This document shows, piece after piece, positions 8,281 through 63,965 of a stretch of DNA of 64,000 nucleotides. The stretch lies in the NCBI GenBank assembly GCA_020619395.1, contig GCA_020619395.1_4860.1, one strand, 5' to 3'. This DNA comes from a phage. The notes below the pieces were generated by a model, which was not told where the DNA came from, ran no database searches, and saw only the letters and a program-made list of their open reading frames with translations. Every line of letters begins with the position of its first letter. Position 1 is the stretch's first letter. The position numbers were made by a program, and so were the translations under genes.

Positions 8281-10134
8281 TTACAGTTTGAAGTTGCTCA
8301 GAGACACGCCCAGACCGAAATCGGAACCGCTTGCAGACAGGCCGTTGCCAGACAGCGTGAAGTCTTCCCCACCGTTGTTGAAGAACAGAGAGGTCGCCAT
8401 CGTGTTGTAGGCATTTACACCAGTCATAGACCAGGTGCAGTTGTTACGGACGAAGTCCAGCAGGCATTTACCGAAGATCGGGTTGATAGCCATATCCAGA
8501 GATTCACCGGTAGCTTGCGGTGCTTTGGATGCGAACAGAGAAGCGGCCAGTTTCAGCATGTAGATACGCTGTTGACGCTCGTTCAGTTCACGGTGGCTGT
8601 AGGACTGTGCGTTCAGGTAGCTATAGACGTCGTTCGCGTTATCACCCAGTTTGGTAACAACGGAAATCAGGTCCATATCCTGGAAGCTACGTTTCTGTGC
8701 AGTACCGGTGTAAACACCGGAAACAGTCGGTACGGCTGCTTTCACGATGTGGCTGCAATGGATGGTACCATTGAAGGCATCGCCCAGCTGTGCTTTCAGT
8801 GCAGAAGCAAATACTGCAGTGAAGCTGGTCGCTGCAACAACTTCGCCGTTCTGATCACGCGGGGACATGGAATTCAGAATAGCGAGCAGCTGTTTCAGAG
8901 AGTTGTCGTAACCGACCGCAATTTCAGACAGCATAGTAGACAGACCACCCAGACCGTTACCGGCACGATGGCTAACTACCAGTGCTGCTTCACGCGGTGC
9001 GAACATATCCAGGCAACCTTCGATAGCTTCACGGCTACCGTCGATTTTGGATACATCAGGACGAGCGTCAGCACCCCAGGACAGGTATTCTGCCACACGG
9101 GAGAACTTGCGATCTTGTTTGTTCAGACGTTTCACAAACAGGTCACGCCAGCCACCGATTGCCGCGATTTCTGCAAATGCAGCCAGCAGCAGCAGTTGAC
9201 GTTCATACGGTGCCATTGCACCTTCAGTTTGAGAATCGACCAGACTTACTACGATTTCAGCCTGCAGCTGTTTCAGGTCGTAGACGCCGTTAACGACAGG
9301 CTTCTGACCGGTGAAACGCATGTTGACGAAACCAGTACCGGATACACGCGGATACACCTGTACCTGATTGGTGTCCAGCAGAGTCGGAGTGGCGTCGGAT
9401 ACGTTGCTTGGGCTGTGCTCAACGGTGATTGCGAAATCAGCACGTTGTGCGTGGCCGTTAGCATCCACAACCGCACCATCTTCCAGCGGCATTACTGCAG
9501 CCTGATAACGGTCATGCTTACGCAGGTTCAGCGTACCCAGGTAGCCTGCGATACGACCGAAGATGCCCATCATCATCTGACCCATCAGAGTACGTGCCCA
9601 CTCAGCATCCAGAACTTTACCCAGGTCTGGTACGGAGTTGATGATCATGAAGTTCGCATTGGTCAGACCATGCGCTTCCATGATGTTTTTCTGTACTACT
9701 GCCAGCACGTCTTTGTTGAACAGTTCAGTGATGGTGTAGTAGTCTTCCTGGCCGTTGTTGGTAGTTTCTTTCAGACGCAGAGACTGACCGCGTTCAAAGA
9801 AGATAATACCGTACAGCCAGTGGCCCTGCCATTGGCCTGCGACATACGCCGCGGAACCCATTTCGTTACCCACGCCGGCGATGGTGCCCCAGCGGAACGC
9901 GTTGAGGTATTCGTTGCTTTTCTTCAGCTCGTCCAGGAGGTTGACGAAGTGCATTGCATAGGTGCTGATGTTGCGGATGCCAAATGCGTTATCGAATTGG
10001 CTGACAGTAGAAGTACCCGGCACAGCAGTTTGCACTTTTACAGTCTCGTTGCCCAGACCGCCCAGTGGTGCGGTGTCTTGAGTCTGAGTGTTGTTCTGCT
10101 GAGCGTTGTTGTTAGAGTCAACGATTTTTACCAT
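8281..10134 (-). CDS. abundant early or structural protein (617 aa); candidate phage-nucleus shell protein (chimallin), alternatively a capsid protein
   Basis: stand-alone unit with its own promoter-like motif, conserved leader TTAAGGAATATTTAAA-ATG and terminator; adjacent to the beta-prime-like gene as in the phiKZ gp54/gp55 arrangement recalled from memory; no sequence motif confirmed. Confidence 0.35.
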   Translation of the reverse strand: MVKIVDSNNNAQQNNTQTQDTAPLGGLGNETVKVQTAVPGTSTVSQFDNAFGIRNISTYAMHFVNLLDELKKSNEYLNAFRWGTIAGVGNEMGSAAYVAGQWQGHWLYGIIFFERGQSLRLKETTNNGQEDYYTITELFNKDVLAVVQKNIMEAHGLTNANFMIINSVPDLGKVLDAEWARTLMGQMMMGIFGRIAGYLGTLNLRKHDRYQAAVMPLEDGAVVDANGHAQRADFAITVEHSPSNVSDATPTLLDTNQVQVYPRVSGTGFVNMRFTGQKPVVNGVYDLKQLQAEIVVSLVDSQTEGAMAPYERQLLLLAAFAEIAAIGGWRDLFVKRLNKQDRKFSRVAEYLSWGADARPDVSKIDGSREAIEGCLDMFAPREAALVVSHRAGNGLGGLSTMLSEIAVGYDNSLKQLLAILNSMSPRDQNGEVVAATSFTAVFASALKAQLGDAFNGTIHCSHIVKAAVPTVSGVYTGTAQKRSFQDMDLISVVTKLGDNANDVYSYLNAQSYSHRELNERQQRIYMLKLAASLFASKAPQATGESLDMAINPIFGKCLLDFVRNNCTWSMTGVNAYNTMATSLFFNNGGEDFTLSGNGLSASGSDFGLGVSLSNFKL

Positions 10135-10180
10135 TTTAAATATTCCTTAATAGTGATTGCAATCATAGTTCGGTTCGCAG

Positions 10181-10195
10181 AGATAATATCTGCCT
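10181..10195. promoter_or_regulatory. promoter-like motif AGATAATATCTGCCT, 47 bp upstream of the minus-strand start at 10134
   Basis: member of the recurrent AGATAATATC family in a divergent intergenic region. Confidence 0.4.
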
Positions 10196-10273
10196 GTAAT
10201 TTCATGGAATGCAAGTACGCCGTCGCTTACTTACAAGGCACATAGTCCAGACATTTCTCAGGAACTGTCACAT

Positions 10274-11763: not shown

Positions 11764-14043
11764 TTACTCCTCCGCTTCTTCCCCATCCTCTTCCTCTCCA
11801 TCACGTTCAGATTTCTTAACGTACTCGCCGCTACCTAATTCTTCCTTGACCGAGTCTACGGACTCGCCGTAGTAATCCGAAAGCAGACGAGTTCTGTTCT
11901 TGTCCATCATGAAGACACCCAGACATTCCAGGATGTGATAGTAAGGTTCTACTGTGGAGAATGCGCTTCGACGTGTGTCTGCAGCATCAATCAGCTCCGG
12001 AGGAATACCGAAGTTTTCCACCAAGAACTCTGGCAGTATCAGAGTACGATAGGTGCGATAGTTGTTCTCTTCGAACCACCGTGTTGCAGTGGTCTTAATC
12101 ATCGGGTCTTTAATGTTTTCCAGCCACTCTTTAACGGCTGTTTTGTTCTCCAGGTTTACCGGAAGTTTCACGGCGTCATAAGGCGGTTCGTCCAGGTAGC
12201 CGTACTTCGGTCCAAAGATGGCGTTGTACATGCGGTGATAGTGGTAGCTCTTTTCATCATCTTCAGAGTACGCACTACGGTCTTTGACGTTGGTTGTTTT
12301 CAGGTAGCCTGCTTTACCAGCGCGAATAGAATCCACCACAACGTGCTCAATTGCAGCAACCTTTTCCAGCAGAGGCAGAATCTTAATCTTGTCACCACGT
12401 GCCACGATCTCACAGAGTTCTTTAATCGTGCGTTTGAACTCTTTCATGACCACCGGAGGAATGTTCGACGTACGTAAAGACACGCCCTTAACTTCTAACT
12501 CAGGGTCAGACTTCAACTGCCCTTCCTGGCCAGTGATGATGGAGAAATAGTGTTTTGCTTTCGTGGTTAACGCAAAGGAGTCGAACTTAAATTCGTTCTT
12601 CATTGCGTACAAAAACAGACGCTCTTTCGCCACACCGATATTCGCCGACATACTCGCCATCAGATGACGTAAGTGCTGGGTTGCGATATAAATCATCGCA
12701 TCCGATACGCGCGTAGCTTCACGACCGTAATGTTGGCCGGTATACCACTGCGCCCACCACTGTGCAGTCATCATCGTGGAGTCGGTATCAGACACCACGC
12801 CGACACGACGAACCACGTCGGGCATCCTGGCAATGTTGATTGGCAGGTTTTTGGTGGTCAGGATATTACGAATCAAGCACGCGTACTTACCGATGGTTTT
12901 CTGCAGATACACAGCTGAGCGAATCAGCTCTTTGTATTTTTCCTGCTTATCCCACGGTTCCGCTTTGTTCGTGTTTTCGTCTTTGAGTTTAACGTCAGAG
13001 AACGACTTACCTAACGGCACGATATCAGTACGGAACTGCGAGATAATGATCTGCATGTCACCGTCGATAGAGCGCTCAGCGGCATCCCAATCAGTGATCT
13101 CGTCTTCCATCTCCTCGGCAATCAGCGCGCCGATAAATCCGCGCATGAATTCATCGTTGTATTTCGCCAGGTGGTAGAAGTCACCCATGTAGACAAACGC
13201 TGCACGTACCAGCGGGCTACAATTACCGACGTAGTGACGAATGAACTCCAGCCCTTCGTCGTTACGGAAGTAAAACTCTGCAGAGTACATAACCACTTCC
13301 ATAACCTCGTCCACTGTTGGGTAGTGGAGGTTATAGAGTTCCATACACTTCTTGAACTCCGCAAAGTTAGTCAGTGTACCGATAGAAAGTAGGTGGTCGA
13401 TAACACGGGACGGCGTGTCGTAGTGACGATTACCGCCCAGTAGACGTTCGTTGCCCGCGTTACCGAACGATGTAGCCGTACGGCAGGTTGACGTCAATAC
13501 AGAGTGCGAGGACTGGTTAAAGATTACCGTGTACGGTGATGAGAATGCACCCGACATTCCGTTGTTCAACGTCTTAACAGCGTTCTGTTCGTTCTTTTTG
13601 TTAATACGCAGAACTTCATTACCCGCAGCACCTGCTGCGTACATCTCTTTCTTAACGACCGCACGCTTACGCACGTTCTCTGCGGTAAATTCAGCAAGCT
13701 TAGAGCGCTTGACGTGCTCAGGCAGATAAAAGGTCAGCGACGGTGCAGAAATAATCTGCTTATCAATCACTGTACGGAACAGTTTATCTACCGTGGTGTA
13801 TTTTTCTTCGCGATCGCCGGTCTTTTGATTGCGCACCCACATCTTACACACGGGGAATTCGTGTACTAACTCACCACCAGGTTGGAACATTTCTTCGACC
13901 TGCTGTCGACAGAACTCCAAAGAATATTTCCCGTTGGTGACGGTATGAATGTAGAGCGCCAGTTGTTCGTAGTACGCATCGATAACGTCAATGTCGCGAT
14001 GATACTCGTCTTGACTAAGACGAAATGGTGAATTGTAGTCCAC
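11764..14043 (-). CDS. large hypothetical protein (759 aa), acidic C-terminus; function unassigned
   Basis: long ORF; has VVSDTDS and KTLNNGMSG segments but no coherent polymerase motif set. Confidence 0.6.
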   Translation of the reverse strand: MDYNSPFRLSQDEYHRDIDVIDAYYEQLALYIHTVTNGKYSLEFCRQQVEEMFQPGGELVHEFPVCKMWVRNQKTGDREEKYTTVDKLFRTVIDKQIISAPSLTFYLPEHVKRSKLAEFTAENVRKRAVVKKEMYAAGAAGNEVLRINKKNEQNAVKTLNNGMSGAFSSPYTVIFNQSSHSVLTSTCRTATSFGNAGNERLLGGNRHYDTPSRVIDHLLSIGTLTNFAEFKKCMELYNLHYPTVDEVMEVVMYSAEFYFRNDEGLEFIRHYVGNCSPLVRAAFVYMGDFYHLAKYNDEFMRGFIGALIAEEMEDEITDWDAAERSIDGDMQIIISQFRTDIVPLGKSFSDVKLKDENTNKAEPWDKQEKYKELIRSAVYLQKTIGKYACLIRNILTTKNLPINIARMPDVVRRVGVVSDTDSTMMTAQWWAQWYTGQHYGREATRVSDAMIYIATQHLRHLMASMSANIGVAKERLFLYAMKNEFKFDSFALTTKAKHYFSIITGQEGQLKSDPELEVKGVSLRTSNIPPVVMKEFKRTIKELCEIVARGDKIKILPLLEKVAAIEHVVVDSIRAGKAGYLKTTNVKDRSAYSEDDEKSYHYHRMYNAIFGPKYGYLDEPPYDAVKLPVNLENKTAVKEWLENIKDPMIKTTATRWFEENNYRTYRTLILPEFLVENFGIPPELIDAADTRRSAFSTVEPYYHILECLGVFMMDKNRTRLLSDYYGESVDSVKEELGSGEYVKKSERDGEEEDGEEAEE

Positions 14044-30185: not shown

Positions 30186-30428
30186 TCAGGCGAGTGCTCC
30201 CGATACGGCAACTTGATGTAGGGTATACACAACGTGTAGCCCCGCGGTCGATAGTCCACCGATAAGCAATACGCCAAAGCTACAGATAATCTGACCGAGC
30301 CGCATTGTGCGTGTGCAGACATCGTGGCTTTGTGCGTGTATGCGTATTACTTCGATGGTGTGGCGTAAGCCAAAGTATAGGCAAATCCACATTACCAGCA
30401 CGATTGCGTAGTAGAGTTGAGTCATCAC
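30186..30428 (-). CDS. small membrane protein (80 aa, two hydrophobic helices); holin-like candidate
   Basis: hydrophobic segments YYAIVLVMWICLYFGL and ICSFGVLLIGGLSTAGLHVVY; 4-nt overlap with the terminase gene. Confidence 0.45.
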   Translation of the reverse strand: MMTQLYYAIVLVMWICLYFGLRHTIEVIRIHAQSHDVCTRTMRLGQIICSFGVLLIGGLSTAGLHVVYTLHQVAVSGALA

Positions 30429-32536
30429 TTCATCCTCTGTCGTTGGATTAGCTCTTTCAAGCTTTCCATCGATGCGACGTTACGAACGTCAGTGTTGAGT
30501 TGAGAGACGAGCGCTTGAATACGATTCTTGTACATGAGCTGTTGTACCGGGTCGGCTACAACTTGACTCTGCCTAATCATCGTTTCAATTTGCCCCATCA
30601 GTTGTTGTTGCTTTTCTTCTTCCTCGACTGCAGCCTCTTCATCGAATTCACCTGCCATGCCCCCGAGCATATTGCGGTTGCGCATCATCAGTCGGCTGTT
30701 ACTTATACCGTAGTGGCCTAAGTTGTTGCCGAACAGAAGTAACCACATTGCCAGGAGCCAGGATATTACCAGGTCATCGTGACCGGATGCACGGTGGTCT
30801 ATGCGCCCGTTTCGTTCGACGAGACCGAGGATTTGGTCGATCAATTCGCCTGACCGCAGTAAGTCCGCAGAAAGACGCAACGCCGTGGTAAATACTTCAC
30901 CATACAACTTACGGCGTTTATCCTGGTCGGTTGAGAAACCGATGTATTTACGGAATTTGTCCCAGAAGCGCTCTGGACTGCCCACAGGGCCACGATGGAA
31001 CTCTTTGTAAAGTTCATCGTTCCTTGAGTAATCCTGGGTCACTTTCACGTACAAACGACGATGCAAATCGCGAACCTTAGATTGCAGCTGCAGTATGATG
31101 GCATCTGCTACCGAGGAGCCGGTAGACCGTCGTTCCAGAATGAGTACCGTGTTCGGATATTCGATCATGAAGTCTGCTAAGTGAATCGCAAACCCGATGA
31201 CGTTTGTTTCGTTCACGGTGAGCTTGCCGGCATATTCGGCAGTGACAGAGTTGACGATTGACATGGCAATGGCGTCCCGCCCCACGGCTTCGGAAGTATC
31301 CAAACCGATGATGTGGCGGTCTTGCATTTTAACCAGCATCTGTTCTTCGGTGTAATACCAATCCGTTACGTAGTTGGAAGCAGAGATAATTTTCTGTGCT
31401 GCCCGAATACGCGAGGCGTTCATACGTCTTGCATCATCGCCTGAGAACGGTTTGTTGTAACCACCGGTTGTCCATTCACCACCGAAGTCACGGCGGATTT
31501 GGTCTGGTGTACCTGGGGCGTTCGCAATCATATCTGCGAGTTCTTCGTCCGTGGTACCGAGTTGGCGGTGGTTGTATTTCACGTAGAACATGATACGTGG
31601 AATCTTCGCAGTAGAGCCTTTGCGAATCATGTCAATCAGTTGTGCACGAGTCGGAATGTCGATATACCGTTCATCCCACGAAATCCCCGACGTCATCAGG
31701 CTGTACATGTACTCGCCTTCTTCTGTCGCCAAATCCCCAGGCGTTGTTGCGAAGACGTTGCCGTATGGAACACCTTCGGCTTCGTTAATACGACGCGCCG
31801 CGGTACCCGATGCTAGTGCAGCAGGGAGGATATGGTGGATGTTGTTGGTAAACGGTCCTTCATCCGAGAACAGGCGTCCGGCTGTGAGTCCACGGCCTAC
31901 CCCGTTCGCAGCTTCCTTATCGTTTTGACCGATGCCGGTGATAAGTTTGTTACCCTGCGCTAGACATGCAAATGTCTCACGGTTATCAGGATCGTCCGGG
32001 TGATGTGGCCAGAGATAATCCGGTAACGCGTTACGCAGTTGTTTCATTTTGTTGATAGTTTCTTCACGCAGGGCAGGACCCTTCGTGATAAGAATCGTAC
32101 GTGAGTTCTCCAGGAAGCGCATCAGCCACAATAGCAATGCGGACATCCCGACAGTTTTACCATGCTGACGGAGAAACTCGATAGCGGCGTCGATGTTGTT
32201 GAAGAAAATCCAATACATCGAAAAGTTACCGCGGTCTAGACGAAACGGCATCCCGTTCTTTACACCATCCGCAGGGACCCGGACACACTCACGGAAGAAG
32301 TACCATGGGTTTTCCGCACACTCCGTAACAATCATCGCTTTTTGTTCGAGTGTTAAATCCGGGCTAAACGGATCAACACCACGGAGTTCGGGATTGTGTA
32401 ATGCCAGGTGGACGTACCAATGCTGGACACCTAATCCTTGTAGTGTTGTGGCGAATTGAAGGAAGTGCACGTTTGGTGTGACATCGTCAACAATCGCCCC
32501 CGGATAGTGTCGCCAATCGTTTTTTCGCAGTATCAT
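30425..32536 (-). CDS. terminase large subunit (T4 gp17-like)
   Basis: Walker A-like LRQHGKT near the N-terminus, resembling the T4 gp17 P-loop; size 703 aa. Confidence 0.6.
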   Translation of the reverse strand: MILRKNDWRHYPGAIVDDVTPNVHFLQFATTLQGLGVQHWYVHLALHNPELRGVDPFSPDLTLEQKAMIVTECAENPWYFFRECVRVPADGVKNGMPFRLDRGNFSMYWIFFNNIDAAIEFLRQHGKTVGMSALLLWLMRFLENSRTILITKGPALREETINKMKQLRNALPDYLWPHHPDDPDNRETFACLAQGNKLITGIGQNDKEAANGVGRGLTAGRLFSDEGPFTNNIHHILPAALASGTAARRINEAEGVPYGNVFATTPGDLATEEGEYMYSLMTSGISWDERYIDIPTRAQLIDMIRKGSTAKIPRIMFYVKYNHRQLGTTDEELADMIANAPGTPDQIRRDFGGEWTTGGYNKPFSGDDARRMNASRIRAAQKIISASNYVTDWYYTEEQMLVKMQDRHIIGLDTSEAVGRDAIAMSIVNSVTAEYAGKLTVNETNVIGFAIHLADFMIEYPNTVLILERRSTGSSVADAIILQLQSKVRDLHRRLYVKVTQDYSRNDELYKEFHRGPVGSPERFWDKFRKYIGFSTDQDKRRKLYGEVFTTALRLSADLLRSGELIDQILGLVERNGRIDHRASGHDDLVISWLLAMWLLLFGNNLGHYGISNSRLMMRNRNMLGGMAGEFDEEAAVEEEEKQQQLMGQIETMIRQSQVVADPVQQLMYKNRIQALVSQLNTDVRNVASMESLKELIQRQRMK

Positions 32537-37713: not shown

Positions 37714-39759
37714 ATGACTTTTATTCCACGAAACGGCGCGCCGTTGAATAACAAGCAAGGTTGGCAGGATAACTCTGTCCCCGAGCTTGTGCGTACCCCT
37801 ACGGGTGACGCAATTCATAAGCCGCTGATCTTCACCTTTGCCGCGCGCGGGGTAGACAACGAGGCGTTCCCGTTAACCGGGGATAATGCACTGTCTCTGC
37901 TTGGTCGCAATGTCTTTGACTTGCGAGGCCCCTACGCGACGTTCAACACGCCCTATCAGGCGATGTTCAACGCTAACGCAAACGAGTGTATGTATCAGCG
38001 CTTGATCCCTGAAGATGCGAAAACCGCAAGTGTTCGCGTATTCGCCGACGTACTCGAAACGAAAGTTCCGTCCTACGAACGCGACAGCAACGGGATCGTT
38101 CAGTACGACAACTCGGGCAAGCCCAAGATCGAAGAACAAGTTGACGGTTTGGTAATCGTCTTCCGTTCTGTCGTAATCGACGAAACTACCCCGGCCATCG
38201 GCGCAGGTGTGGTTATCGAGGGGACGATGACTGGCGAAGGCGGCACGAAATCGAAGCTGTATCCGTTGTTCGATATCGCAGGCCCGTATGCGGGTGCTGA
38301 CGTCAACGGTTTCGGTTTCAAACTGATCCCACTCAGCGAGAAATCCAGCCCGGCTCTGACCTCCTCCTATCAAAATGAAGTCGGTGGTCGTGTTTACACC
38401 CTGCAATGGTTCGAAACCCTGGCAGGCGTGACTTCTCCGGTAGTGTGGAAAACTCTTACTGGCATGAGTAGCATCAATTTTAGCTTTAAGCCCGATGCAT
38501 ACTATCAGCCGATGAGAACGCAACTCGACTTCGAAGTTGTTGTTGCGGATGCATATCGTCAGACGATGCCTGACATTGGCGAGCTGCCAGATTATGGTCC
38601 TTTCGAGCAGTTCTATCTGTATCGCGAGAACCTGGAAACTGTACTGGGCTTGGCTCAGGCCGCTATCACAACTGATGCGCCTGCTGACCCGTATATGGTT
38701 GACATCTTTGGCGGCTATGATTTACTGGGCCAGCCTTACGATGGTCTTCAGGTAAACCCGGCTACTGAAACCGGTAAAGTTGTGTTCTCCGCATCCAACA
38801 TCCACTACCTGCAAGGTGGTAGCGATGGTACCATGAACAACGACGTTTACGACGAACTCGTTCGCCGTGAAATGCTGCTGTTCCCGGATGGCGGTAAAGT
38901 CCGTTACGACAACGAGCTGAAATACTCGCTGGGTTGTTTCTGGGACTCTGGCTTTAGCTTCGATACTAAAGCTGCGCTCGTGAACTTCATCGGTCGTTCA
39001 CGTAACACCTTCTTGACGCTGGCGACTCACGTTCACAACCAAGGTCGTAACGATGAGCAGACAGAAGAAAGTGCAAAAATCGCCCTGATCGAATTGATCA
39101 CTGCGGTACCGGAATCTGCCTATTACGGTACTCCGGCTGCACGTGGTATGGTCACTGGCCAATCGGCGTTCATCAAGAACTCTTCCTACAAGAAGCCTGT
39201 TCCGATGAACTATTCCCTGGCGAACTTCTTCTCGAAGTACCTGGGTGCTGCTGAAGGTCGTGCAAAACCGGCTTATCGTTTCAGCCGTGGCGAACTGACG
39301 ATTATCGAAGATCTGACTGACCTGAGTATGCCGTGGAAAGGCAACGAAGTGTATGCATCTGACTGGGATGTGTCGCTGATCACTGCCCGTTCCTACGACT
39401 ACTATCGCTTGTTCATTCCGGCGATTCAGTCAATCTACAGCGAAGATCGTTCTGTACTGAACAACGCCCTGTTCAACTTCATGATGACCTACGTCTATCG
39501 TGTTTCCGACCGTGTATGGGCGGACATGTCTGGCGAAGCGGCCATGACGGATGATGAACGTGCGAAGATGATTGAGAACAAAATTATCGAACGTCTGGAA
39601 GGCCGTCTCGATAACGTTGCTGTCGTCACTCCGAAGGCGTACTTCACTGCAGACGATAAATCCAATGGTTACTCTGTGACGCTGGACCTGATCGCTGAAG
39701 GCGGTGTGCTGCTCACCCAGTTCAACACCACTATCAAAGTTTACCGTCGGGAGAGCTAA
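37714..39759 (+). CDS. tail sheath protein candidate (681 aa)
   Basis: size and position directly upstream of a 291 aa gene, like a myovirus sheath-tube pair; GGAG RBS; shared terminator after the pair. Confidence 0.45.
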   Translation: MTFIPRNGAPLNNKQGWQDNSVPELVRTPTGDAIHKPLIFTFAARGVDNEAFPLTGDNALSLLGRNVFDLRGPYATFNTPYQAMFNANANECMYQRLIPEDAKTASVRVFADVLETKVPSYERDSNGIVQYDNSGKPKIEEQVDGLVIVFRSVVIDETTPAIGAGVVIEGTMTGEGGTKSKLYPLFDIAGPYAGADVNGFGFKLIPLSEKSSPALTSSYQNEVGGRVYTLQWFETLAGVTSPVVWKTLTGMSSINFSFKPDAYYQPMRTQLDFEVVVADAYRQTMPDIGELPDYGPFEQFYLYRENLETVLGLAQAAITTDAPADPYMVDIFGGYDLLGQPYDGLQVNPATETGKVVFSASNIHYLQGGSDGTMNNDVYDELVRREMLLFPDGGKVRYDNELKYSLGCFWDSGFSFDTKAALVNFIGRSRNTFLTLATHVHNQGRNDEQTEESAKIALIELITAVPESAYYGTPAARGMVTGQSAFIKNSSYKKPVPMNYSLANFFSKYLGAAEGRAKPAYRFSRGELTIIEDLTDLSMPWKGNEVYASDWDVSLITARSYDYYRLFIPAIQSIYSEDRSVLNNALFNFMMTYVYRVSDRVWADMSGEAAMTDDERAKMIENKIIERLEGRLDNVAVVTPKAYFTADDKSNGYSVTLDLIAEGGVLLTQFNTTIKVYRRES

Positions 39760-54543: not shown

Positions 54544-54572
54544 TTTTAAGCTCCTGAATTGGAAGAAACATT

Positions 54573-57500
54573 ATGGCAAAAAGAGGCAAAGACGGTTTCG
54601 ATGATATCGATTTAGATAGACTCGACGACTGGGATGATTTCGGTGAACCACCCCGTCCCAAAGACGAGAAAAAACGAAGCCCGATACTCAGTACCCTGAA
54701 TGTTGCCAGGAAGTCGGCGTTGTCAACTATCTGGCCAGAAGGGAAACGCGACCAAGTTATCCTCAAGGGGATGCCTAAGCCGGCAGCTGATACATACGAG
54801 GGCTATCAGTCAGCGGCAGCTGCAGCAAAGGACATTTACGCCCATACGAAAGGGGAGCTTGAGAAGACCGAGCGCACGCTGAAGATGCAAGCGCGTCAAC
54901 TCGGACCGACAATGAAGAAATACTTGCCGGATGCAGTTACTAAACGCTTCGACAAGTGGTCAAAATCTGACCAGTTAGATTACCAGAACTACGATCCGAA
55001 TCAGGCATTGATGGATCGTGAACTGGGCGACGTATTCTCAGGTGTGCCAAAGGACGCCGATGAGCAACGTCAGCTGCAGGATCGCATGGTAGAGGACAAG
55101 CTCCGTGACAGCATCAAAGAGATGCGCGCGGATGCAATGCACCAAACCATGATTGGGATGGCGAAAGATATTAACCTGTTAACCGGGTTAAGCCGTGGGG
55201 TATTCTTAAACATCGAGCGTAAGAAGCTCGAATTGCAATACCGCACCCTGTTCGCCATTCAAGACATCGTGAAGATGAAGCAGTCGGAGTTCGATCGTAA
55301 CACGCCTGCTTTAGAAGCCATCGTGAAGAACACGGCACTGCCGGATTACGCGAAGGAAGATTTCTCAGAAGTCCGTTGGGCGAACGTTAAACGCCAGGCT
55401 GCGGAATGGATGAACCCGTTGCGTTATGCTGACGGGTTTATGGACATGATTCGCGAAAATACCAAGAAGAAAATTTCTGGTATATTTGGCGAAGGTCGTG
55501 GTTTGTTAGAGTCCGTTCTCGGCATGGGTGTTGAAGACGATTTCGGCATGAGCGATAGCTCTTCGTTGACTGCCGAACGTCGCAAAACAAATGCTCGCGA
55601 TAAAGCAACTGCATGGGGTAGCGGATTCCTTGCGAAGAAACTACTCGGCCCACAAATCGAGAAACTCCAGAAATGGACTCGTGAGGAGATGGAGAAAAAT
55701 CCAGAGGTCATGAAACGCCTGCAGAAGGGCGCGTTCACCTTTGGTAATCTTTCCTCTATCTCGAACTCAGCTATCGCAGGCGAAACGCAAGGACCGTTGG
55801 CGGATTTGTTCCGGGTATTGAATGAACTCGGTATTGTCCAACCGTTAAACCGCGAGAAAGCTTTTCTTGATGAGCGTAATGGCGAAACGTTAAGCCGTTC
55901 GGCGAAGTTTGACCGCAAAGCGTATCTTAGCATAGTTGAAGTTATTCCTGCCTGGCTGGCAGAGATTAACAAATCTGTTCGTCGTGGCTATGGCGAACAT
56001 GCCGACCTGGAATATGACATCACCAGCCGTGGTTTCGTAGACCGCAAAGTGGTCGGTAATCGTGTACGAAAAGCGGTTGCAAATGATGAGCAGCGTCTGC
56101 GTCTTCAGAATTCCATTAATAGCACTGTGGATTTTGTTGACCGCGGCAAAACACTCTCGCAGAAGGATCGTCAGCATCTTGCCGACTATATTGAGTCGCG
56201 TGCCTCGCAGGGCCGTGCATTCGACGTAGAAGCAATTTTGAAAGACCCGATGCATCTTCATCGGTATATGCCAGGAAACTCTGCAGAACGCATTAAGGAA
56301 GCGTTACAGGGGCATTCTGATAGCCTGGTCGGTGGTAGCAACGAATTAAGTAACGAACTGGCTCGCAAAATCTCCACAGTGCAGTCATCTATCACCCAAC
56401 GTCAGGCAATTATCGACGAGGCGGTGAATATTTACGGCGAGCGAGCGTTGCGTGATGCGGGTATCTTTAACTACGACGCGAAGAGTGACACCTTCGGCGT
56501 GGATAAAGACCTGTCCGATCCCTATACCTTGTTTAATGACTTGGCGATGGGTAAGACACGCAGCGGGCGTGCATTGACTCGTGACCAGGAGATTCAACGT
56601 AAGCTGCAAAATGGTTCGGCGTTAGGCGACTATCTGCGCCGAATGAACCAAGGGGCAAGTGGTGGTGCCGATGACACGTCGTTACCGCCGGCTTTACGTG
56701 GCGGTGGTAAAGGCCGCGGAATGTCGCCTCGGCAGCTAGCCGCGGTTCTCTACGGTGAAACCTCGACTAACTTTGTTGAATTGTTGAGTCAACGTAACCG
56801 TGGCGAAGAAGCGCCACGGAATAACTTTGACGGTATCATCGAAGCGATTCGGGGTAACAACAACAGTGACACCCTCCAGAAAATTCTGGAACACGTCAGA
56901 AGCATGGACGAAGAAGGGGTTCTCCTGGCTTCGTTAGCAGGGGGTGCTGGTTCTGGCGATGAAGAAATGGGCCCGCCTCGCCCTGGCGGTGGTAGCGGTG
57001 GCGGTAAACGCCGTCGTATTATCATCGGTGAGGATGGGCTTATTCGTCGTTGGGGTGGTGTGTTGTTCGACACCGCAACAGGAATCGGCGGCTTTGCAAA
57101 ACGTGGTGTTAAGGGTGCCTGGAATAAACTGAACCAGTTCGGTGGCTGGGCACGCGGTAAAGTCGCAGGAATGGGTGGCGGAGAAGGTCCTGGTTTCTTA
57201 ACCCGGATGCGTGGCCTTATTAGTGGTAGTGTCCGTGGGGGCTTTGAAGCAGTAAGCTCTTTCGGTAAAGGACTACTGGGTATCCGCGACATTTACGATG
57301 ACCACGGTAATGTTGTTCTGCAGGGCGCACGCCTGGAAGCTGGGGAATACTACCAGGTTATTGATGGTAAGATGGTTCAGTTGAAAACACTGGACGACAT
57401 CAAGCTGGGGAGCGACATTGTTGACTCCGCAGGTAATCTGGTATTAGCGGCCGCTGACTTAGCCGCTGCGGGTAAACTCCGCTACTATAAAGGCGGGAAA

Positions 57501-60500
57501 ATCCAAGCACTGACCCAAGGTCTGGCCAGTAAGATTGGTTTAGGCTTTAATAAGGTGGCTAAGCTACCGAAAAGGTTCCTGGATTTCCTGTCACCAAAAG
57601 CGGGCAGCATCGTTGGTAAGATTAAGGACTGGCTGAACGAGATTCCGGAAGGCGAAGAAAAGACACGTCTCCAGAAAGCGTTCAACCGTGTAACGAGCTT
57701 ACCGGGTAAAGTGCTCGGTTTTGCGAAACGTGGTGTCGATCGTCTGAAAGACATGATTACCGACAACCCACTGACGCGTTGGTGGAAAGGCCGTAAAGAT
57801 GGTGGGGGTGGTGGTTTCAGTCTCTTCTCATCAACCGGCAAGAAAACCAACCACATCCTTATCCGTATCTATAAACTGTTGAACCAACGTTTACCGGGAG
57901 ATCCGGAAGACGAAAGTTGGACAGAGGAAATGGAGAAGGGCGTCGGGGGTGGCGGTAGTACGATCGGTCGTGCAGTACGCGGGGCGTATGATCGTGCGAA
58001 AGCGTCATTGTCTGAACGTTTTGGTGGACGTTGGTCAAGAACAAAAGCGTTCTTTGGTCGTGGACGTGACCGCCTGCGTGGTTGGTTCAGTGGTTTCCGA
58101 GGCCGGGCTGGGGATATGCTCGATGGATATCGTGGAGCACGACACGACATTGCTACACGTTACGAAGTTGAACGTCGGTTGGCTGGACGCGATGATGATG
58201 TTGCTGAGTTTTATCGCAGCCATTTGAACGCGAAAGGTGGCCTTTCTGGCCGTAAAGTCTACGGCGATGCGAAGGAAGACCTTGAGACCGCCCGCGATGC
58301 AGCAGGGAGGGTTATCAACAAAGGGAAGAATGCCGCCAAGTCAGCAGGTGCAAGGTTATTCGAACGCTTGGACCGAATGATTGGCTTGCAAGAGATGTCG
58401 TGGTTTAACACCATGCGCGAATCAGTATCCCGTGCAGGTGGCGACGATGGCATTATTCGTACCATGTTTGCGAAGTTCGGTAAACGTAACAAGCCGCCTG
58501 AAGGTGATGAAAAACGCGACTACTTTAACTTCTTCAAACGTTGGCGTGAGAAACGTAAGGAGAAGAAAGAGAAAGCGCAGGGCTCCAAAGGGAAATCTGG
58601 CGGTCTGTGGGATATGGTGAAAGGCTTACCTATCATCGGTCCCATCGTCAGTATCTTGGGAACTGTGGGTAATATACTCGGTTCTATCACGAAATGGGGT
58701 GTGTTAAAACCCGTAGGTCTTTTAGGTAAGGCTGCGTGGAATGTTGGTAAGTTCGCAGTAACCCGTTTGGCGGCACCCGCGGTGTCCGCTGTGGCAACTG
58801 CGGCATCTGCCGTCGTGACAGCAGTGGGCTGGCCGGCAATTCTTATCGGTGGTGCGATCGCTGCGGCAGGTTACGCCGCGTACAAGATCGCAACGACTAC
58901 CTATACCCAGTACCTGGATAAGATGCGTTTAGCTCAGTACGGTTTCCGTGATTACGATAAGTGGTCGTCGGACGACGGGGCGAAGGCGCGTTACTTAGAA
59001 GACGCATTGCGTGAGTATGTGTCTTACGCGGAAGATGGCCAAGCCAGTCTCCGCGGACTAAGTGGAAAAGACGTTCAGAAGTTAGCTGAAGGGTTCGGTA
59101 TCAACGTTGAGGAAAAAGGCGAGATGTTGGCCTTCCAAGCGTTTATGCTTCAGCGCTTCATTCCGATTTATCTCCGCTGGATTACGGCACTGAAATCGAT
59201 GCCGAACAGTATCCAGTTGGCTGACGTCGGCGATGCGAAGAAAGTATCGAAAGAGGACATGCAGACACTCTTCAACAAAATGAAGATGACTAAGGATGCA
59301 AAAGCGTTCTCTTCGTTAACTGACCCACGCAAAGTCAACCAAGGTTTCTTCTCGAAAGCTTGGGACGTTGTAACCTTTACACCGAAGGAGTTTTTGAGCG
59401 GTGAAGAGGTTATGGAAGTGCAGAATGAAGTTGAGCGTGCAATCAAGTTCAGAATGGACGATAAGAAAGCACGTAAGTACGGAATGGCACCGGCTGTAGA
59501 GGGGATTAAGTCCGCGGGCGTTGATGAAGCTATCAACAAACTTGGACAGTTGGATAACGAACGTAATAAAAATCTGGCGAAGGTAGAGGGTTGGGAAGAC
59601 GGAACAGAGCAGGTTCAGATTCAGGTAGACTGGAATGCGGTGCTCGACCAGAAAGACATGAATGCGATGGAGTCGGTACGTTGGAAGACTTATGGTTTTA
59701 CCACCATCGACAACGCCACACGCACGTTGATTACGGTATTCGAGAAAAACGTCATCAAAGACATTGACGTGAAAACCGCAAGCTACAAAGGTGATTGGAA
59801 GAAAGCAATCGCCTCAATGGTTCCAGACGCTATCGGCACACCGAAAGAAGATCGTTTGAAGCGGTGGTTCTTTGACCGTTTCTTACCGGTATTCATGACG
59901 TACTTGGTTGGGGTGAAACGCTACCTGCCAACAGCTGATCCGCTGAACTTGAAACTGACCGGCGGTTACCTGTACGAAATCAGTTTGATGATGTCAACTG
60001 CCTACAGCTTGAAAGGCGGTATAAGACAGTCGGTGTGGGAAGTGAATATCAACCCATTAGGGGGCGATGCTAACACGAACCCATCGTCTATCAAAGCCGA
60101 GCTGGAAACGCTGAAGCTGTTGTCAAAAGAAGCTGACCTTGCCGTGCGTAACATGATTAAAGCCATTAAAAATAATGGCAAGCGTGCACGCTGGAAGGAT
60201 CGTAACAAGAACCGCAGTTCTCTGGAAGTCACCGGTGAAGATGAAGAAGACTCGAACATCAGTTCGGGAGATTCTTTGTCATCTGACGGTGCTCGCGCCT
60301 CAGGCTACATGCCATCGGGTACGAGTGGTGGTGTGCCGGGTAACTTGGGTCAAGTCGTCGATGCGGTTGGTGGTGTGCGGAACTACGCTGCAATGACCAC
60401 TGGTTCGTCTTCGATTAACCTGAGTGATGTGAAAGACGGTGATTATAAGTCACTGGCTGAAAAATACCCGATAGAAATGTTGGGTAGAAAGGGTGCGTTG

Positions 60501-61694
60501 AACGTTCCGAATATCAAAGCATTGATTACCGATGCAGCGAACATGATGGGCGTGCCACCTGCAGTGGCGTTAGCAATGGCTAAGGCGGAGTCCGGATTTA
60601 ACTACACCGCTAAAAACCCGTATGCTTCGGCGTCTGGGTTGTTCCAGTTTGTTAACGGCACGTGGGACGGGATGATGAAGGGGTATTCGCGGAAGTTTGG
60701 TATTCCGCGTGTTAACCAAATGGACCCGTGGGCGAATGCTATACTGGGTGTACAGTTCATTCGTGACAACATCCAACAAGCACAACGTGACCTGGGTGGT
60801 AAAGCACCACCTCCAGCCGTGGCTTATCTGTACCACTTCCTAGGTGCAGGCGGCGGTAAGAAATTCCTGGAAGCGTGGAAGCGTAATCCGAATATGGCGG
60901 CATCGAGTGCTCCTGGGATTACATCCGCAATATTGAGAGGGAATGCCAACGTCTTCTACAGCAACGGTCGTATACGTAGCGTAGACGGGGTTATTCAGGA
61001 ACTGAACCGCCGCATGGGCGCAATTTCCGCCAACGAAGTCGCTGCCGATCCGAGCAAGACGAAGGATATGGTTGCAGGCTTGTCGCCTAATTCACCAACC
61101 AACCCGGCAGCAGCAATGGGTGCACCGGCCGCTAATGACCCGAGTCTGTCACCGGCAGATAACCTGCCAGCAGATAATGCTAATCGTCGTGATGACGCAT
61201 TGACGCAGAAAGGGGCCATGGCGGCACAAGATGCAATGGCTACCGCCGCAGGTAATGTAGGACCAGCAGCACCTACACCAACCACAGGCGGTACCGGAAC
61301 ATCCGATGCCTCAACAACGGCCGAAACCGTAGCGTCGCAAGCTGCAGCAGAAGGATTGTCTGCGACGGATGTTGCTAAAGTGAAAGCAGGCGCGGAAGCG
61401 CAGGTTAACGCAGCAGCTCGTCCAGTTGCCGCTCCAACTTCTGATGCTACAGCATCGACGCCAACGCTGAATGGTGACCCGATAGATGTTCAGCAGCTCA
61501 AGGTACTGATTCAGTCTCGCGATTACTTGAAAGAGATTCGTGATATTTTGAAATCAAATCCGAGAGCAGCAAACGACACGCGTGGTGGTAGTATCCAGCA
61601 AGCGGCAAATGTTCCTCCTCCGGGCTCAGCTGCACGCAGGCAGGAAATAACCCAACCGACACCGTCGTTAAACGTAAGTCGGAAAGCAAGCTAA
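54573..61694 (+). CDS. giant virion-associated protein (2373 aa) with C-terminal lytic transglycosylase (SLT) domain, central hydrophobic segments and Gly-rich repeats
   Basis: SLT signature ALAMAKAESGFNYTAKNPYASASGLFQFVNGTWDG around 60560-60660; hydrophobic stretch GLPIIGPIVSILG...AILIGGAIAAAGYAAY; repeated FAKRGV and GGGG/GGSGGG segments. Confidence 0.65.
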   Translation: MAKRGKDGFDDIDLDRLDDWDDFGEPPRPKDEKKRSPILSTLNVARKSALSTIWPEGKRDQVILKGMPKPAADTYEGYQSAAAAAKDIYAHTKGELEKTERTLKMQARQLGPTMKKYLPDAVTKRFDKWSKSDQLDYQNYDPNQALMDRELGDVFSGVPKDADEQRQLQDRMVEDKLRDSIKEMRADAMHQTMIGMAKDINLLTGLSRGVFLNIERKKLELQYRTLFAIQDIVKMKQSEFDRNTPALEAIVKNTALPDYAKEDFSEVRWANVKRQAAEWMNPLRYADGFMDMIRENTKKKISGIFGEGRGLLESVLGMGVEDDFGMSDSSSLTAERRKTNARDKATAWGSGFLAKKLLGPQIEKLQKWTREEMEKNPEVMKRLQKGAFTFGNLSSISNSAIAGETQGPLADLFRVLNELGIVQPLNREKAFLDERNGETLSRSAKFDRKAYLSIVEVIPAWLAEINKSVRRGYGEHADLEYDITSRGFVDRKVVGNRVRKAVANDEQRLRLQNSINSTVDFVDRGKTLSQKDRQHLADYIESRASQGRAFDVEAILKDPMHLHRYMPGNSAERIKEALQGHSDSLVGGSNELSNELARKISTVQSSITQRQAIIDEAVNIYGERALRDAGIFNYDAKSDTFGVDKDLSDPYTLFNDLAMGKTRSGRALTRDQEIQRKLQNGSALGDYLRRMNQGASGGADDTSLPPALRGGGKGRGMSPRQLAAVLYGETSTNFVELLSQRNRGEEAPRNNFDGIIEAIRGNNNSDTLQKILEHVRSMDEEGVLLASLAGGAGSGDEEMGPPRPGGGSGGGKRRRIIIGEDGLIRRWGGVLFDTATGIGGFAKRGVKGAWNKLNQFGGWARGKVAGMGGGEGPGFLTRMRGLISGSVRGGFEAVSSFGKGLLGIRDIYDDHGNVVLQGARLEAGEYYQVIDGKMVQLKTLDDIKLGSDIVDSAGNLVLAAADLAAAGKLRYYKGGKIQALTQGLASKIGLGFNKVAKLPKRFLDFLSPKAGSIVGKIKDWLNEIPEGEEKTRLQKAFNRVTSLPGKVLGFAKRGVDRLKDMITDNPLTRWWKGRKDGGGGGFSLFSSTGKKTNHILIRIYKLLNQRLPGDPEDESWTEEMEKGVGGGGSTIGRAVRGAYDRAKASLSERFGGRWSRTKAFFGRGRDRLRGWFSGFRGRAGDMLDGYRGARHDIATRYEVERRLAGRDDDVAEFYRSHLNAKGGLSGRKVYGDAKEDLETARDAAGRVINKGKNAAKSAGARLFERLDRMIGLQEMSWFNTMRESVSRAGGDDGIIRTMFAKFGKRNKPPEGDEKRDYFNFFKRWREKRKEKKEKAQGSKGKSGGLWDMVKGLPIIGPIVSILGTVGNILGSITKWGVLKPVGLLGKAAWNVGKFAVTRLAAPAVSAVATAASAVVTAVGWPAILIGGAIAAAGYAAYKIATTTYTQYLDKMRLAQYGFRDYDKWSSDDGAKARYLEDALREYVSYAEDGQASLRGLSGKDVQKLAEGFGINVEEKGEMLAFQAFMLQRFIPIYLRWITALKSMPNSIQLADVGDAKKVSKEDMQTLFNKMKMTKDAKAFSSLTDPRKVNQGFFSKAWDVVTFTPKEFLSGEEVMEVQNEVERAIKFRMDDKKARKYGMAPAVEGIKSAGVDEAINKLGQLDNERNKNLAKVEGWEDGTEQVQIQVDWNAVLDQKDMNAMESVRWKTYGFTTIDNATRTLITVFEKNVIKDIDVKTASYKGDWKKAIASMVPDAIGTPKEDRLKRWFFDRFLPVFMTYLVGVKRYLPTADPLNLKLTGGYLYEISLMMSTAYSLKGGIRQSVWEVNINPLGGDANTNPSSIKAELETLKLLSKEADLAVRNMIKAIKNNGKRARWKDRNKNRSSLEVTGEDEEDSNISSGDSLSSDGARASGYMPSGTSGGVPGNLGQVVDAVGGVRNYAAMTTGSSSINLSDVKDGDYKSLAEKYPIEMLGRKGALNVPNIKALITDAANMMGVPPAVALAMAKAESGFNYTAKNPYASASGLFQFVNGTWDGMMKGYSRKFGIPRVNQMDPWANAILGVQFIRDNIQQAQRDLGGKAPPPAVAYLYHFLGAGGGKKFLEAWKRNPNMAASSAPGITSAILRGNANVFYSNGRIRSVDGVIQELNRRMGAISANEVAADPSKTKDMVAGLSPNSPTNPAAAMGAPAANDPSLSPADNLPADNANRRDDALTQKGAMAAQDAMATAAGNVGPAAPTPTTGGTGTSDASTTAETVASQAAAEGLSATDVAKVKAGAEAQVNAAARPVAAPTSDATASTPTLNGDPIDVQQLKVLIQSRDYLKEIRDILKSNPRAANDTRGGSIQQAANVPPPGSAARRQEITQPTPSLNVSRKAS

Positions 61695-61703
61695 TCGTAG
61701 GGG

Positions 61704-63965
61704 GTGGCAACACCCCCTAATCATCTTACAGAGAGGTTTTACGTGGAAGCAAGACAACTAAAAGATTCAGGATGGGTAACCGGCCTGTTTGGCGGTACAA
61801 CCGCACAACGCGATGAGCGTTTCCTGGGTTTGCGTCGTTACTCTAACGCGATGCTCTCGTTTGAAGATACCACGATGGGTGGTTCGCAAGCGTTAAATGC
61901 GCCGCCGCAGTTTACGATGTTTGCTGATCCGAGTTCAACAGGTGCCTTTGCACAACCTGATGCGGGTCGTGGCTCGTACTCAAAGTACGTTAAAGGTCAA
62001 GACCAACGTGGTTCCTATCGTCTAGGGACTTTCTATTACGAAGCTATTAACCAAAACAGTTTTTATCTTCATTGTCGTTTCGGTAAACCTCGATATATCG
62101 GGGTCGCTGCATTCTTCGCGAATATGTACGATTCCAACCTAGCGTATCTGGCGCGCACAGGTGACTACCCAGGTATGTTACGTGCGATGGGGACGTATGT
62201 TGCCGCCGCAGCAATATGGGCCGCAGTAGGTACGGTTGCCTTTGCGGTTATTCTGATTACGCCACGTATGTTGAAGATGGTGCTGAACAAGCAGACTTCT
62301 CGCTACTACTACGTGAAACCGACAATGCACTTGTATCTGCGCGCGGTGCAGAATATGGTCAACACCCAGTTAGTTTATCGCCGATTGGTACCAACGGGTG
62401 TGTTAGGGACTTTCCAGCTTGCTAATGCTGTAGATGGGTCTGAGAAAGGCGGTACTGCTAATAAGTACAACGGCGACCGCAAAGAGTGGTACTCCATGCT
62501 GCCAGAAATCTGGACAGCTGATGGTGAGTTCGATATCTATCGAATGATTAACCGCTACCAAACATTAGCCAACTACCAGGCGAAAACCATCGATAAAATT
62601 CGTAAAGAGTCGAGTAACGAAGAGGACATGGCTCGACGTTTGCGAAACTTCTATCTGGAAGCGACGTACTCAACAACCCATTTGGAGAAAGCTGCGCAGT
62701 ACGAGGTTTCTTTACGTAACCTTGAATACGTAGCCAAAGCCGGTAAAGGGTACGATGCCGGTTTTGAAAACGTCGATAACAAAGAAGACGAACTGGTAGC
62801 AGGGATGAACGGAAGCATTCAGGATGCTCAGTCACAAGGAGGTAAAGCTGAAAACTTCGAAAACGAAGGTGATGCGCAACGTAAAGAGCTTGCCGAGCGT
62901 ATGGCACAGGTTGAAAAGAACCAGGCTCAGGTTGCTAAAAGTCAGACCGAAGCAAACTCAATGGATGAGAATAATCTCGACATTGGGAAGATTGAAAACT
63001 GGATGGACCAAGGCCAGAAAGAATCTGTCGGTAGCGTCTTCAAAGACTATATCGATATTTTAGAAGGCGCTATGGATGGGTTAACTTCGAACATCGCTTC
63101 GGAGATACGCAATGGTTCGCAGTGGATTACTTGGCGTGTTGATGGACGTGATACCGTAGGGCGTTCGTTCTCCAACACCACCAAAGAACCTGAAATCTCT
63201 GGCACGGTTAACTCCGCCACACAGAAAGCACGTTCTTTGGAAGTAAACCTCTCTGGTGGTAAGACTGGTTTCGACGCAGTCGATGGTCTCATTACTGGGT
63301 TGAAGTCCGCCTTTACAGGCGCACTCGATTTCTTGCATTTATCAGGGATTATGTCGCTGTACAACTCGTCAGTGATTGACTTCCCGGAAGTGTGGGACTC
63401 CTCAGACACCTCAGGTGACGATATCTCGCTAAGTATTCCCCTTCGCTGTTGGTCGGGTAACGACTTAGATGTGTTTCAGGATCTGATTGTCCCGTTGTCG
63501 TTCTGGTTAGCGGCAGTTTGTCCGTTAGCAACCGGTAAACAATCGTTTACACACCCGTTCTATCTGGAGTGCTATTCTCGCGGTCGTTATTCCATGCGTA
63601 ATGCCATGGTAACTAACCTGAGTCTCCAGTTCGGTACAGGTGGTTTAGGTTGGCGTGCTGACGGTCTGCCGTTGTCGTGTGATATACAGGTAACTATTCG
63701 TGACCTGTCGCGCGTTATGTACATGCCGATTGTAACTGATATTGGTGTGTTTGATGATGATAACAAGTTCAGTGAATTTATGTCTGTGTTGGGCGCTGCC
63801 ACGCTTTACGAGCGTACCAACGGCATCGCGCAGGCTAAAATCAATGCGTCTATCTGGGCGCAGAACTGGGCAAGTGCCTGGTCGCAGGGCAGCATCGTCA
63901 ACGCCGCCTTAGATATCATACCAGCCCGACAAATCGCGAACATTTTCCTACCACAAGCGCGTTAA
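61704..63965 (+). CDS. hypothetical virion-module protein (753 aa) with one hydrophobic segment
   Basis: follows the giant SLT protein after a 9-nt gap; hydrophobic stretch GTYVAAAAIWAAVGTVAFAVILI. Confidence 0.55.
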   Translation: MATPPNHLTERFYVEARQLKDSGWVTGLFGGTTAQRDERFLGLRRYSNAMLSFEDTTMGGSQALNAPPQFTMFADPSSTGAFAQPDAGRGSYSKYVKGQDQRGSYRLGTFYYEAINQNSFYLHCRFGKPRYIGVAAFFANMYDSNLAYLARTGDYPGMLRAMGTYVAAAAIWAAVGTVAFAVILITPRMLKMVLNKQTSRYYYVKPTMHLYLRAVQNMVNTQLVYRRLVPTGVLGTFQLANAVDGSEKGGTANKYNGDRKEWYSMLPEIWTADGEFDIYRMINRYQTLANYQAKTIDKIRKESSNEEDMARRLRNFYLEATYSTTHLEKAAQYEVSLRNLEYVAKAGKGYDAGFENVDNKEDELVAGMNGSIQDAQSQGGKAENFENEGDAQRKELAERMAQVEKNQAQVAKSQTEANSMDENNLDIGKIENWMDQGQKESVGSVFKDYIDILEGAMDGLTSNIASEIRNGSQWITWRVDGRDTVGRSFSNTTKEPEISGTVNSATQKARSLEVNLSGGKTGFDAVDGLITGLKSAFTGALDFLHLSGIMSLYNSSVIDFPEVWDSSDTSGDDISLSIPLRCWSGNDLDVFQDLIVPLSFWLAAVCPLATGKQSFTHPFYLECYSRGRYSMRNAMVTNLSLQFGTGGLGWRADGLPLSCDIQVTIRDLSRVMYMPIVTDIGVFDDDNKFSEFMSVLGAATLYERTNGIAQAKINASIWAQNWASAWSQGSIVNAALDIIPARQIANIFLPQAR

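Follow-up and report, generated by a model that had tools for sequence, protein, structure and literature searches.

The phage contig GCA_020619395.1_4860.1 (NCBI GenBank assembly GCA_020619395.1), a stretch of 64,000 nucleotides that we refer to as the window, carries at positions 54573 to 61694 of its plus strand a giant gene whose product has been described before as the tail tape measure protein of SPN3US-type phages. The protein as a whole is probably built of two functional parts, an N-terminal ruler and a C-terminal payload that is expelled at infection. The gene is an open reading frame (ORF) of 7,122 nt that starts with ATG and encodes 2373 amino acids (aa) without internal stop. According to the list of ORFs it is the longest in the window; the original prediction of a giant virion protein had been drawn from the letters of the window. 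Over its full length the protein is 99.0% identical to SPN3US_0239 (gp239, AEP84072.1), with a nucleotide identity of 96.4%, and the best nucleotide match of the 7,122-nt stretch is Salmonella phage 1252 (98.8%). The two proteins have the same neighbours, differ by one residue in length (2372 aa in SPN3US) and by about 1% substitutions, and are effectively the same protein. The gene belongs to an SPN3US-like (Seoulvirus) Salmonella jumbo phage. In addition, the profile of phrog_3201 matches the protein end to end (E 0, 2452 bits), and every sub-fragment of the protein matches its own part of this profile. The finding is real and ordinary: the original prediction presented the role of the protein as not fully described and missed this established identity. 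Little is new about a protein that is 99% identical to a published and proteomically mapped tape measure, and whose phiKZ counterpart is essential and has a characterised lysin.

The assignment to the tail relies on the published proteomics of SPN3US, in which gp239 (259 kDa) was named tail tape measure protein. gp239 was detected in purified virions, was not found in the tailless, DNA-filled particles of the gene 64 amber mutant 64(am27), and dropped more than 10-fold in the tube-gene mutant 255(am107). Because gp239 is 99% identical to the 2373-aa protein, these data locate the latter in the tail and bear out the proposal that it is a virion protein. They also speak to another possible role, that of an internal head and ejection protein like T7 gp16, which would be stored in the capsid, leave through the tail and build a trans-envelope channel with its SLT domain and membrane segments. 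T7 gp16 is an internal core protein that resides in the head. The absence of gp239 from tailless particles filled with DNA, and its strong depletion in mutants with tail defects, place it in the tail instead. The likeness to gp16 is limited to the lysozyme-like fold; the SLT domain of gp16 is N-terminal, and both the domain order and the remaining sequence are unrelated. We consider a gp16-like role very unlikely.

To relate the protein to phiKZ gp181, we used the gp181 orthologue of the phiKZ-like phage SL2 (2237 aa). BLASTP returned two matches, one between aa 12-603 and aa 26-631 of the SL2 protein (E 5e-15) and one between aa 1383-2148 and aa 1297-2047 (E 1e-29), while the central approximately 780 aa could not be aligned by BLASTP. 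The gene order is conserved as well. Upstream, on the minus strand, lie two genes for beta-type subunits of the virion RNA polymerase, homologous to gp240 and gp241 (phrog_2986 and phrog_3148), and downstream lies a homologue of SPN3US gp238 and phiKZ gp182. The arrangement of divergent virion RNA polymerase beta genes, giant gene and gp182-gp238 gene is identical in SPN3US and in SL2. Judged by the two alignments and the conserved synteny, the 2373-aa protein and phiKZ gp181 are syntenic orthologues, which sharpens to orthology the gp181-type likeness that had been noticed in the letters. The SL2 protein shares only 20-24% identity with the window protein and is 136 aa shorter; the homologous C-terminal part spans both helical modules described below as well as the SLT domain, catalytic Glu included. 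In phiKZ, the 6,714-bp gp181 gene was free of insertions and was therefore scored as essential.

The C-terminal region of the protein carries a lytic transglycosylase domain. Pfam PF01464 matches aa 1984-2072 well above threshold (37.4 bits, cut-off 21.3, E 2.1e-9), and a phmmer search against the sequences of the PDB returned only phiKZ gp144 (3bkh and 9xps_S, E ~2e-15, aa 1987-2139), a match that the family profile lifts to E 1.6e-57. The domain has a lysozyme-like fold. Within the AESGFN motif, on which the original prediction had based its SLT signature, E2006-S2007 align with the catalytic E115-S116 of gp144, and G2022-L-F-Q2025 are present. We then looked for a possible loss of the catalytic Glu context in an alignment of 84 homologues (2094-2862 aa, MAFFT FFT-NS-2), which served as family alignment throughout the analysis. 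The catalytic Glu is kept in 93% of the members, and G2022, Q2025 and F2026 of the GLFQF motif in 93-98%. By these comparisons the SLT domain is real and its catalytic Glu intact. A review reports the lysin domain of phiKZ gp181 as an active peptidoglycan hydrolase with 60,000 U/mg, and muralytic activity of the window protein is predicted from this homologous domain. gp144 itself is a different protein, namely an endolysin and neck-wedge protein of 260 aa whose N-terminal domain binds peptidoglycan, and it lacks the ruler, hydrophobic and duplicated-module parts of the 2373-aa protein. Within the family, the lysin is interchangeable: GH19 replaces SLT in P0041, P0043, P0045 and P0084, SLT is combined with an M23 peptidase in P0076, and a VanY peptidase with SLT in P0078. 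The latter also has a Peptidase_S74 match that is weak though above threshold (24.6 bits, cut-off 22, E 3.2e-05). Such an interchangeable module is typical of virion-associated lysins.

Between the hydrophobic segments and the SLT domain lies the sole true internal repeat of the protein, a helical module of about 140 aa that is present in two copies and is not Gly-rich. Copy A aligns to copy B with an hhalign probability of 98.6% (E 5.4e-16), and the pair was recovered also in the self-scan of the family alignment. A joint alignment of the two copies across diverse homologues revealed invariant R, Y-G, E and R-F-x-P in both. When searched against 1.84 billion proteins, the profile of the module matched 1339 cluster representatives; the best 150 of these matches are nearly all proteins of 2000-3260 aa with 2-3 copies at the same relative position. 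Moreover, the second halves of jumbo-phage giants in BFVD align over the whole 725-aa model. We found no Pfam family match for 18 module sequences, and no fold could be assigned to them. The order of hydrophobic segment, two module copies and lysozyme-like domain is the architecture of the family, and the 2373-aa protein has it. The duplicated module is a hallmark of the family that had previously gone unremarked.

Comparison of 83 homologues showed where the length of these proteins varies. The N-terminal part ranges from 1275 to 2003 aa (standard deviation 117) and correlates with total length (r = 0.86), and a constant 542 +/- 22 aa lie between the Y1456 anchor of module A and the catalytic Glu. 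Most likely, the proteins combine a variable N-terminal ruler with a constant C-terminal payload, composed of the membrane-active segment, the double module, the lysin and the hub anchor. The constant C-terminal approximately 1000 residues offer a defined target for studying how the tails of jumbo phages penetrate the inner membrane or seed the early-infection vesicle. According to a review, the genome of nucleus-forming jumbo phages is first delivered into this vesicle, which derives from the inner membrane, and cryo-electron tomography found the tail tube attached to it. One could imagine that the payload, with its Gly/Ala-rich segments and its R-x3-Y-G...E...R-F-x-P module, seals the tip of the tube against the inner membrane, whose invagination into the vesicle it would drive or template, instead of forming a simple channel. 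We regard this idea as improbable, and in the literature on the early-infection vesicle we found no role in vesicle formation assigned to the duplicated module, gp181 or gp239. What the payload does at the inner membrane is an interesting question, which the present finding does not advance.

The hydrophobic Ala/Gly/Val stretch that had been noticed in the letters is real and conserved in position. In Kyte-Doolittle windows of 19 residues, only aa 1351-1372 and 1399-1433 of the protein exceed 1.6 (peaks 1.79 and 1.91), and columns 1351-1450 alone have a positive mean hydropathy in the family alignment. About 81 of the 84 homologues have a hydrophobic segment at the equivalent position, on the N-terminal side of the catalytic Glu and approximately 570-650 residues away from it; the stretch is therefore not adjacent to this residue. 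Gly, Ala, Ser and Thr are abundant in the segments, and a crude sum on the Hessa scale (+2.65 and +4.1 kcal/mol) was no better than that of shuffled sequence. Since the sum does not exceed that of the shuffles, we can only infer a transmembrane character, and the stretch is probably a conserved, moderately hydrophobic and membrane-active region rather than proven transmembrane helices.

The original prediction had further described many Gly-rich and basic repeat units, and had taken this repeat organisation, together with the membrane-like segment, to suggest an ejection or channel-forming role. The composition is as described: aa 801-900 contain 30% Gly, as compared to 10.4% in the whole protein, with a net charge of +12, and aa 1001-1400 are basic. 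The units do not exist as sequence repeats. Self-BLASTP with permissive settings and 20 shuffles produced no off-diagonal high-scoring segment pair at E<10, the sole string of six or more residues that recurs exactly is GFAKRGV (aa 840 and 1049), and Tandem Repeats Finder returned nothing meaningful on the DNA. An all-against-all hhalign self-scan of non-overlapping 200-aa windows of the family alignment detected no repeat in the Gly-rich region, and the autocorrelation of Gly and of Lys/Arg had no clear period. Between aa 800 and 1350, the autocorrelation of hydrophobic residues has maxima at lags 4, 7, 11 and 15 (z 3.4-4.1), which indicates amphipathic helices, and AlphaFold2 (AF2) models long helices in aa 701-1347 with low confidence. 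What had been read as a repeat organisation is a biased composition superimposed on a helical scaffold, a practical correction for the annotation of this region. As a basis for an ejection or channel-forming role, the repeats fall away. Ejection and channel formation are in any case what the standard model assumes for tape measures that have hydrophobic segments and a lysin domain, T5 Pb2 being an example, and this role is no pointer to a new kind of protein.

Taken together as a tape measure, the parts of the protein suggest how it may work. During assembly, a few copies would occupy the 68-Å lumen of the tube. The C-terminal end would sit in the region of hub and spacer and the rest in the tube lumen, as in other tape measure proteins. 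The conserved C-terminal end would be anchored in the baseplate hub and in the spacer, whose protein is encoded by the next gene, and the mostly helical N-terminal approximately 1350 residues would extend up the tube and set the length of the tail. Upon infection, contraction of the sheath would push tube and spike through the outer membrane and the spike would leave. The tape measure would then be expelled with its C-terminal end first, so that the SLT domain could cut peptidoglycan locally. Finally, the hydrophobic segments, perhaps with the duplicated module, might engage the inner membrane and prepare a route for the DNA and the ejected proteins. T5 Pb2 and similar proteins offer a likeness, being long helical proteins of the tail lumen that have muralytic activity and membrane-active segments and are expelled at infection. 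The window protein differs from them in that it has about double their length, is part of a contractile tail and devotes approximately 1000 C-terminal residues to the payload; no sequence homology to them is detectable beyond weak PHROG matches, and we know of no duplicated module in T5 Pb2-type tape measure proteins.

Several observations fit the anatomy of a tape measure. In the AF2 model of aa 1-1200, 64.5% of the residues are helical according to DSSP, with helices of up to 92 residues and 3.7% strand, at a mean predicted local distance difference test (pLDDT) of only 55. Besides this helix content, the amphipathic periodicity, the hydrophobic segments, the SLT domain and the variable N-terminal length agree with the same anatomy. 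At 1.5 Å per residue, the 1347 aa of the putative ruler would correspond to 202 nm and the 1296 aa of phiKZ to 194 nm, as compared to a tail of about 200 nm. In the cryo-electron microscopy (cryo-EM) atlas of the phiKZ virion (2026), the tail measures 2000 Å and has 43 tube rings with a lumen of 68 Å, and the tail of SPN3US is reported to be of similar length. gp181 is not among the 40 proteins modelled in the atlas; a protein of the lumen without 6-fold order is expected to be invisible there. The matches to tape-measure PHROGs are all weak (phrog_1533, E 7e-4; phrog_3981, E 0.003; phrog_1535, E 0.003; phrog_167, E 0.009). No function other than tape measure occurs among these weak matches, and the three with E 0.003-0.009 fall on aa 701-1347.

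The same atlas bears on an older reading of phiKZ gp181, proposed in 2008, in which the protein is a structural lysin of the baseplate or a cell-puncturing needle that neither runs through the tube nor sets the length of the tail. A review lists gp181 accordingly as a 'needle-like cell-puncturing device' and putative baseplate trimer, citing Briers 2008 and Fokine 2008, and the lysin domain, real and with intact catalytic residues, also speaks for this reading. However, in the atlas the puncturing device consists of the spike gp164 and the tip gp163.1 on the hub gp101, and the modelled baseplate does not contain gp181. The protein is about 65% helical, has no beta-helix or OB-fold features of a spike and no Pfam spike domains, and the later literature treats it as a tape measure. 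A needle is therefore unlikely.

The databases give yet another function. Both GenBank and PHROG 3201 label the matching proteins 'putative tail fibre protein' or 'tail fiber protein', which would make the window protein a tail fibre. The label comes without evidence and was apparently propagated. No Pfam fibre domains and no beta-rich or receptor-binding domains of fibre type were found in the protein, which has the 3.7% strand given above for aa 1-1200, is predominantly helical and carries an enzymatic lysin and hydrophobic segments. In addition, the fibres of phiKZ are built from paralogues of the gp131 family, as seen in the cryo-EM atlas. A tail fibre is extremely unlikely, and the widespread label is wrong; it should read tape measure protein with lytic transglycosylase domain.

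One record with this label deserves a separate comment. The 'tail fiber protein' P0052 of phage SPFM20 (LR535917.1; 2364 aa) corresponds to the window protein in blocks of about 20 aa that follow each other in reversed order; for example, aa 52-72 of the window protein are aa 2302-2322 of P0052, and aa 1691-1712 are aa 661-682. We considered P0052 as a very divergent homologue or allele and rejected it as a scrambled database record. It looks like a database artefact in which the 60-nt sequence lines were apparently deposited in reverse order. Similar fragmentary tblastn matches were found in SPFM8 (LR535906.1).

A number of observations weigh against the protein being a tape measure that acts as described. 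The full length would reach 356 nm at 1.5 Å per residue, well above the tail of about 200 nm, and the length rule therefore holds only if the ruler is the N-terminal approximately 1350 aa. Within that part, aa 340-670 look in the AF2 model like a folded domain and not like an extended helix. No Pfam tape-measure family matched the protein, and the weak matches to tape-measure PHROGs may be compositional. Upstream we found no pair of frameshifted chaperone genes, the neighbour there being the divergent RNA polymerase gene; to our knowledge, such a pair is not universal in myophages. The hydrophobic segments are marginal on the Hessa scale, and their equivalent in the phiKZ-type gp181 is weaker, below 1.5 on the Kyte-Doolittle scale. 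We found no tail-length genetics for gp239 or gp181 in the literature, and the ruler is an assignment, not a demonstration. Likewise, ejection, orientation and membrane insertion of gp239 and gp181 are presumed from the standard model of tape measure proteins.

The remaining regions of the protein complete its anatomy (Table 1). The first 36 residues have a pLDDT of 30-45 and no secondary structure in the AF2 model. The following region, aa 37-700, is the most widely conserved in tblastn searches, with matches in Goslar, RSL2, a Halocynthia phage and a Bacillus phage. In the family alignment it contains the near-invariant motif I250-KNTALPDYAK-261 and the conserved residues P459 and D482, and in the AF2 model it is 65-73% helical, with a better-predicted helical domain at aa 340-670 (pLDDT 75-88). 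Foldseek comparison of the low-confidence N-terminal model with the PDB yielded no meaningful match (best E 1.2). Towards the C-terminus, both occupancy and conservation of the family alignment are low in the linker of aa 1854-1942, and aa 2201-2300 within the spacer contain 29% Ala and 21% Ser+Thr. The C-terminal tail that follows may be the anchor in the baseplate hub.

Searches for known domains outside the lysin returned little. Pfam searches (E up to 1) on seven fragments of the protein and on the 18 module sequences gave only scattered sub-threshold matches for the non-lysin parts, such as Pre_tape_measure PF23789 (E 0.03, 27 residues), Gp-FAR-1 and Focal_AT. We discarded these and the others as noise that is inconsistent across the members of the family. 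A profile search against PDB sequences with the family profile found, besides lysins, only ExbB (E 0.05) and apolipoprotein A-I (E 0.07-0.1); these matches fall on the hydrophobic and amphipathic regions and were rejected as compositional, not homologous. Of all parts of this protein family, the lysin fold alone has a known structure, the 2026 atlas of the phiKZ virion included.

Table 1. Features of the tail tape measure gene, of its product and of other genes in the window
Feature	Residues (aa)	Positions	Strand	Remarks
Tail tape measure gene, complete	1-2373	54573..61694	+	Stop codon included; orthologue of SPN3US gp239 and, by alignment and synteny, phiKZ gp181
Acidic N-terminal tail	1-36	54573..54680	+	Sequence DDIDLDRLDDWDDFGEPP; predicted disordered
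Conserved helical N-terminal region	37-700	54681..56672	+	Family conservation, AF2, gp181 alignment
Central Gly-rich basic region, amphipathic helices	701-1347	56673..58613	+	Small beta domain at aa 905-970
Two hydrophobic Gly/Ala/Val-rich segments	1348-1373 and 1399-1440	58614..58892	+	Putative membrane-active region
Helical module, copy A	1439-1587	58887..59333	+	R1452, Y1456, G1457, E1476, R1528, F1529, P1531; pLDDT 80-90
Helical module, copy B	1690-1830	59640..60062	+	R1703, Y1707, G1708, E1724, W1765, R1769, F1770, P1772; pLDDT ~80
Acidic Ser-rich flexible linker	1854-1942	60132..60398	+	AF2 pLDDT 28-48
Lytic transglycosylase (SLT, lysozyme-like) domain	1945-2155	60405..61037	+	E2006 codon at 60588-60590
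Ala/Pro/Thr-rich low-complexity spacer	2156-2310	61038..61502	+	Poorly conserved
Conserved C-terminal tail	2311-2373	61503..61691	+	L2319 and R2370 conserved
Hairpin GGGGGTG-GCAA-CACCCCC		61699..61716	+	Perfect 7-bp GC-rich stem, GNRA-type loop; read from sequence
Downstream gene, homologue of SPN3US gp238 and phiKZ gp182		61743..63965	+	phrog_3181; SL2 gp182, BLASTP E 8e-41
Tail sheath gene		37714-39759	+	phrog_3242
Large terminase gene		30425-32536	-	phrog_2
DNA polymerase gene		11764-14043	-	phrog_2927

The gene downstream of the tape measure gene encodes a protein with known counterparts. In the cryo-EM atlas, phiKZ gp182 is a hexameric spacer ring of the central baseplate, between the tube initiator and the hub, and SPN3US gp238 is an essential tail protein for which the SPN3US paper predicted a transmembrane segment at residues 152-174. 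The mechanical ORF list lets this gene start at a GTG at 61704 (61704-63965), inside the hairpin listed in Table 1. Its start is likely the GTG at 61743, on the basis of the SPN3US annotation and of the ribosome-binding site AGAGAGG at 61730-61736. The hairpin begins 5 nt past the stop codon of the giant gene, ahead of the next gene, and is not followed by a T-run; it could be a candidate element that stabilises the transcript or terminates a phage polymerase.

At the other end of the giant gene, only 29 nt (54544-54572) separate the divergent starts of the RNA polymerase subunit gene on the minus strand and of the tape measure gene on the plus strand. With such a short gap, the promoters of the two genes would overlap or sit within coding sequence. 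The tail genes are dispersed in the window: the sheath gene and the tape measure gene are separated by about 15 kb that contain genes for head proteins and RNA polymerase. Further away, a TTG-initiated ORF of 576 aa on the plus strand (8515-10245) runs antisense to a 617-aa gene on the minus strand (8281-10134) that matches phrog_8316 with E 1e-302, and is most likely a shadow ORF.

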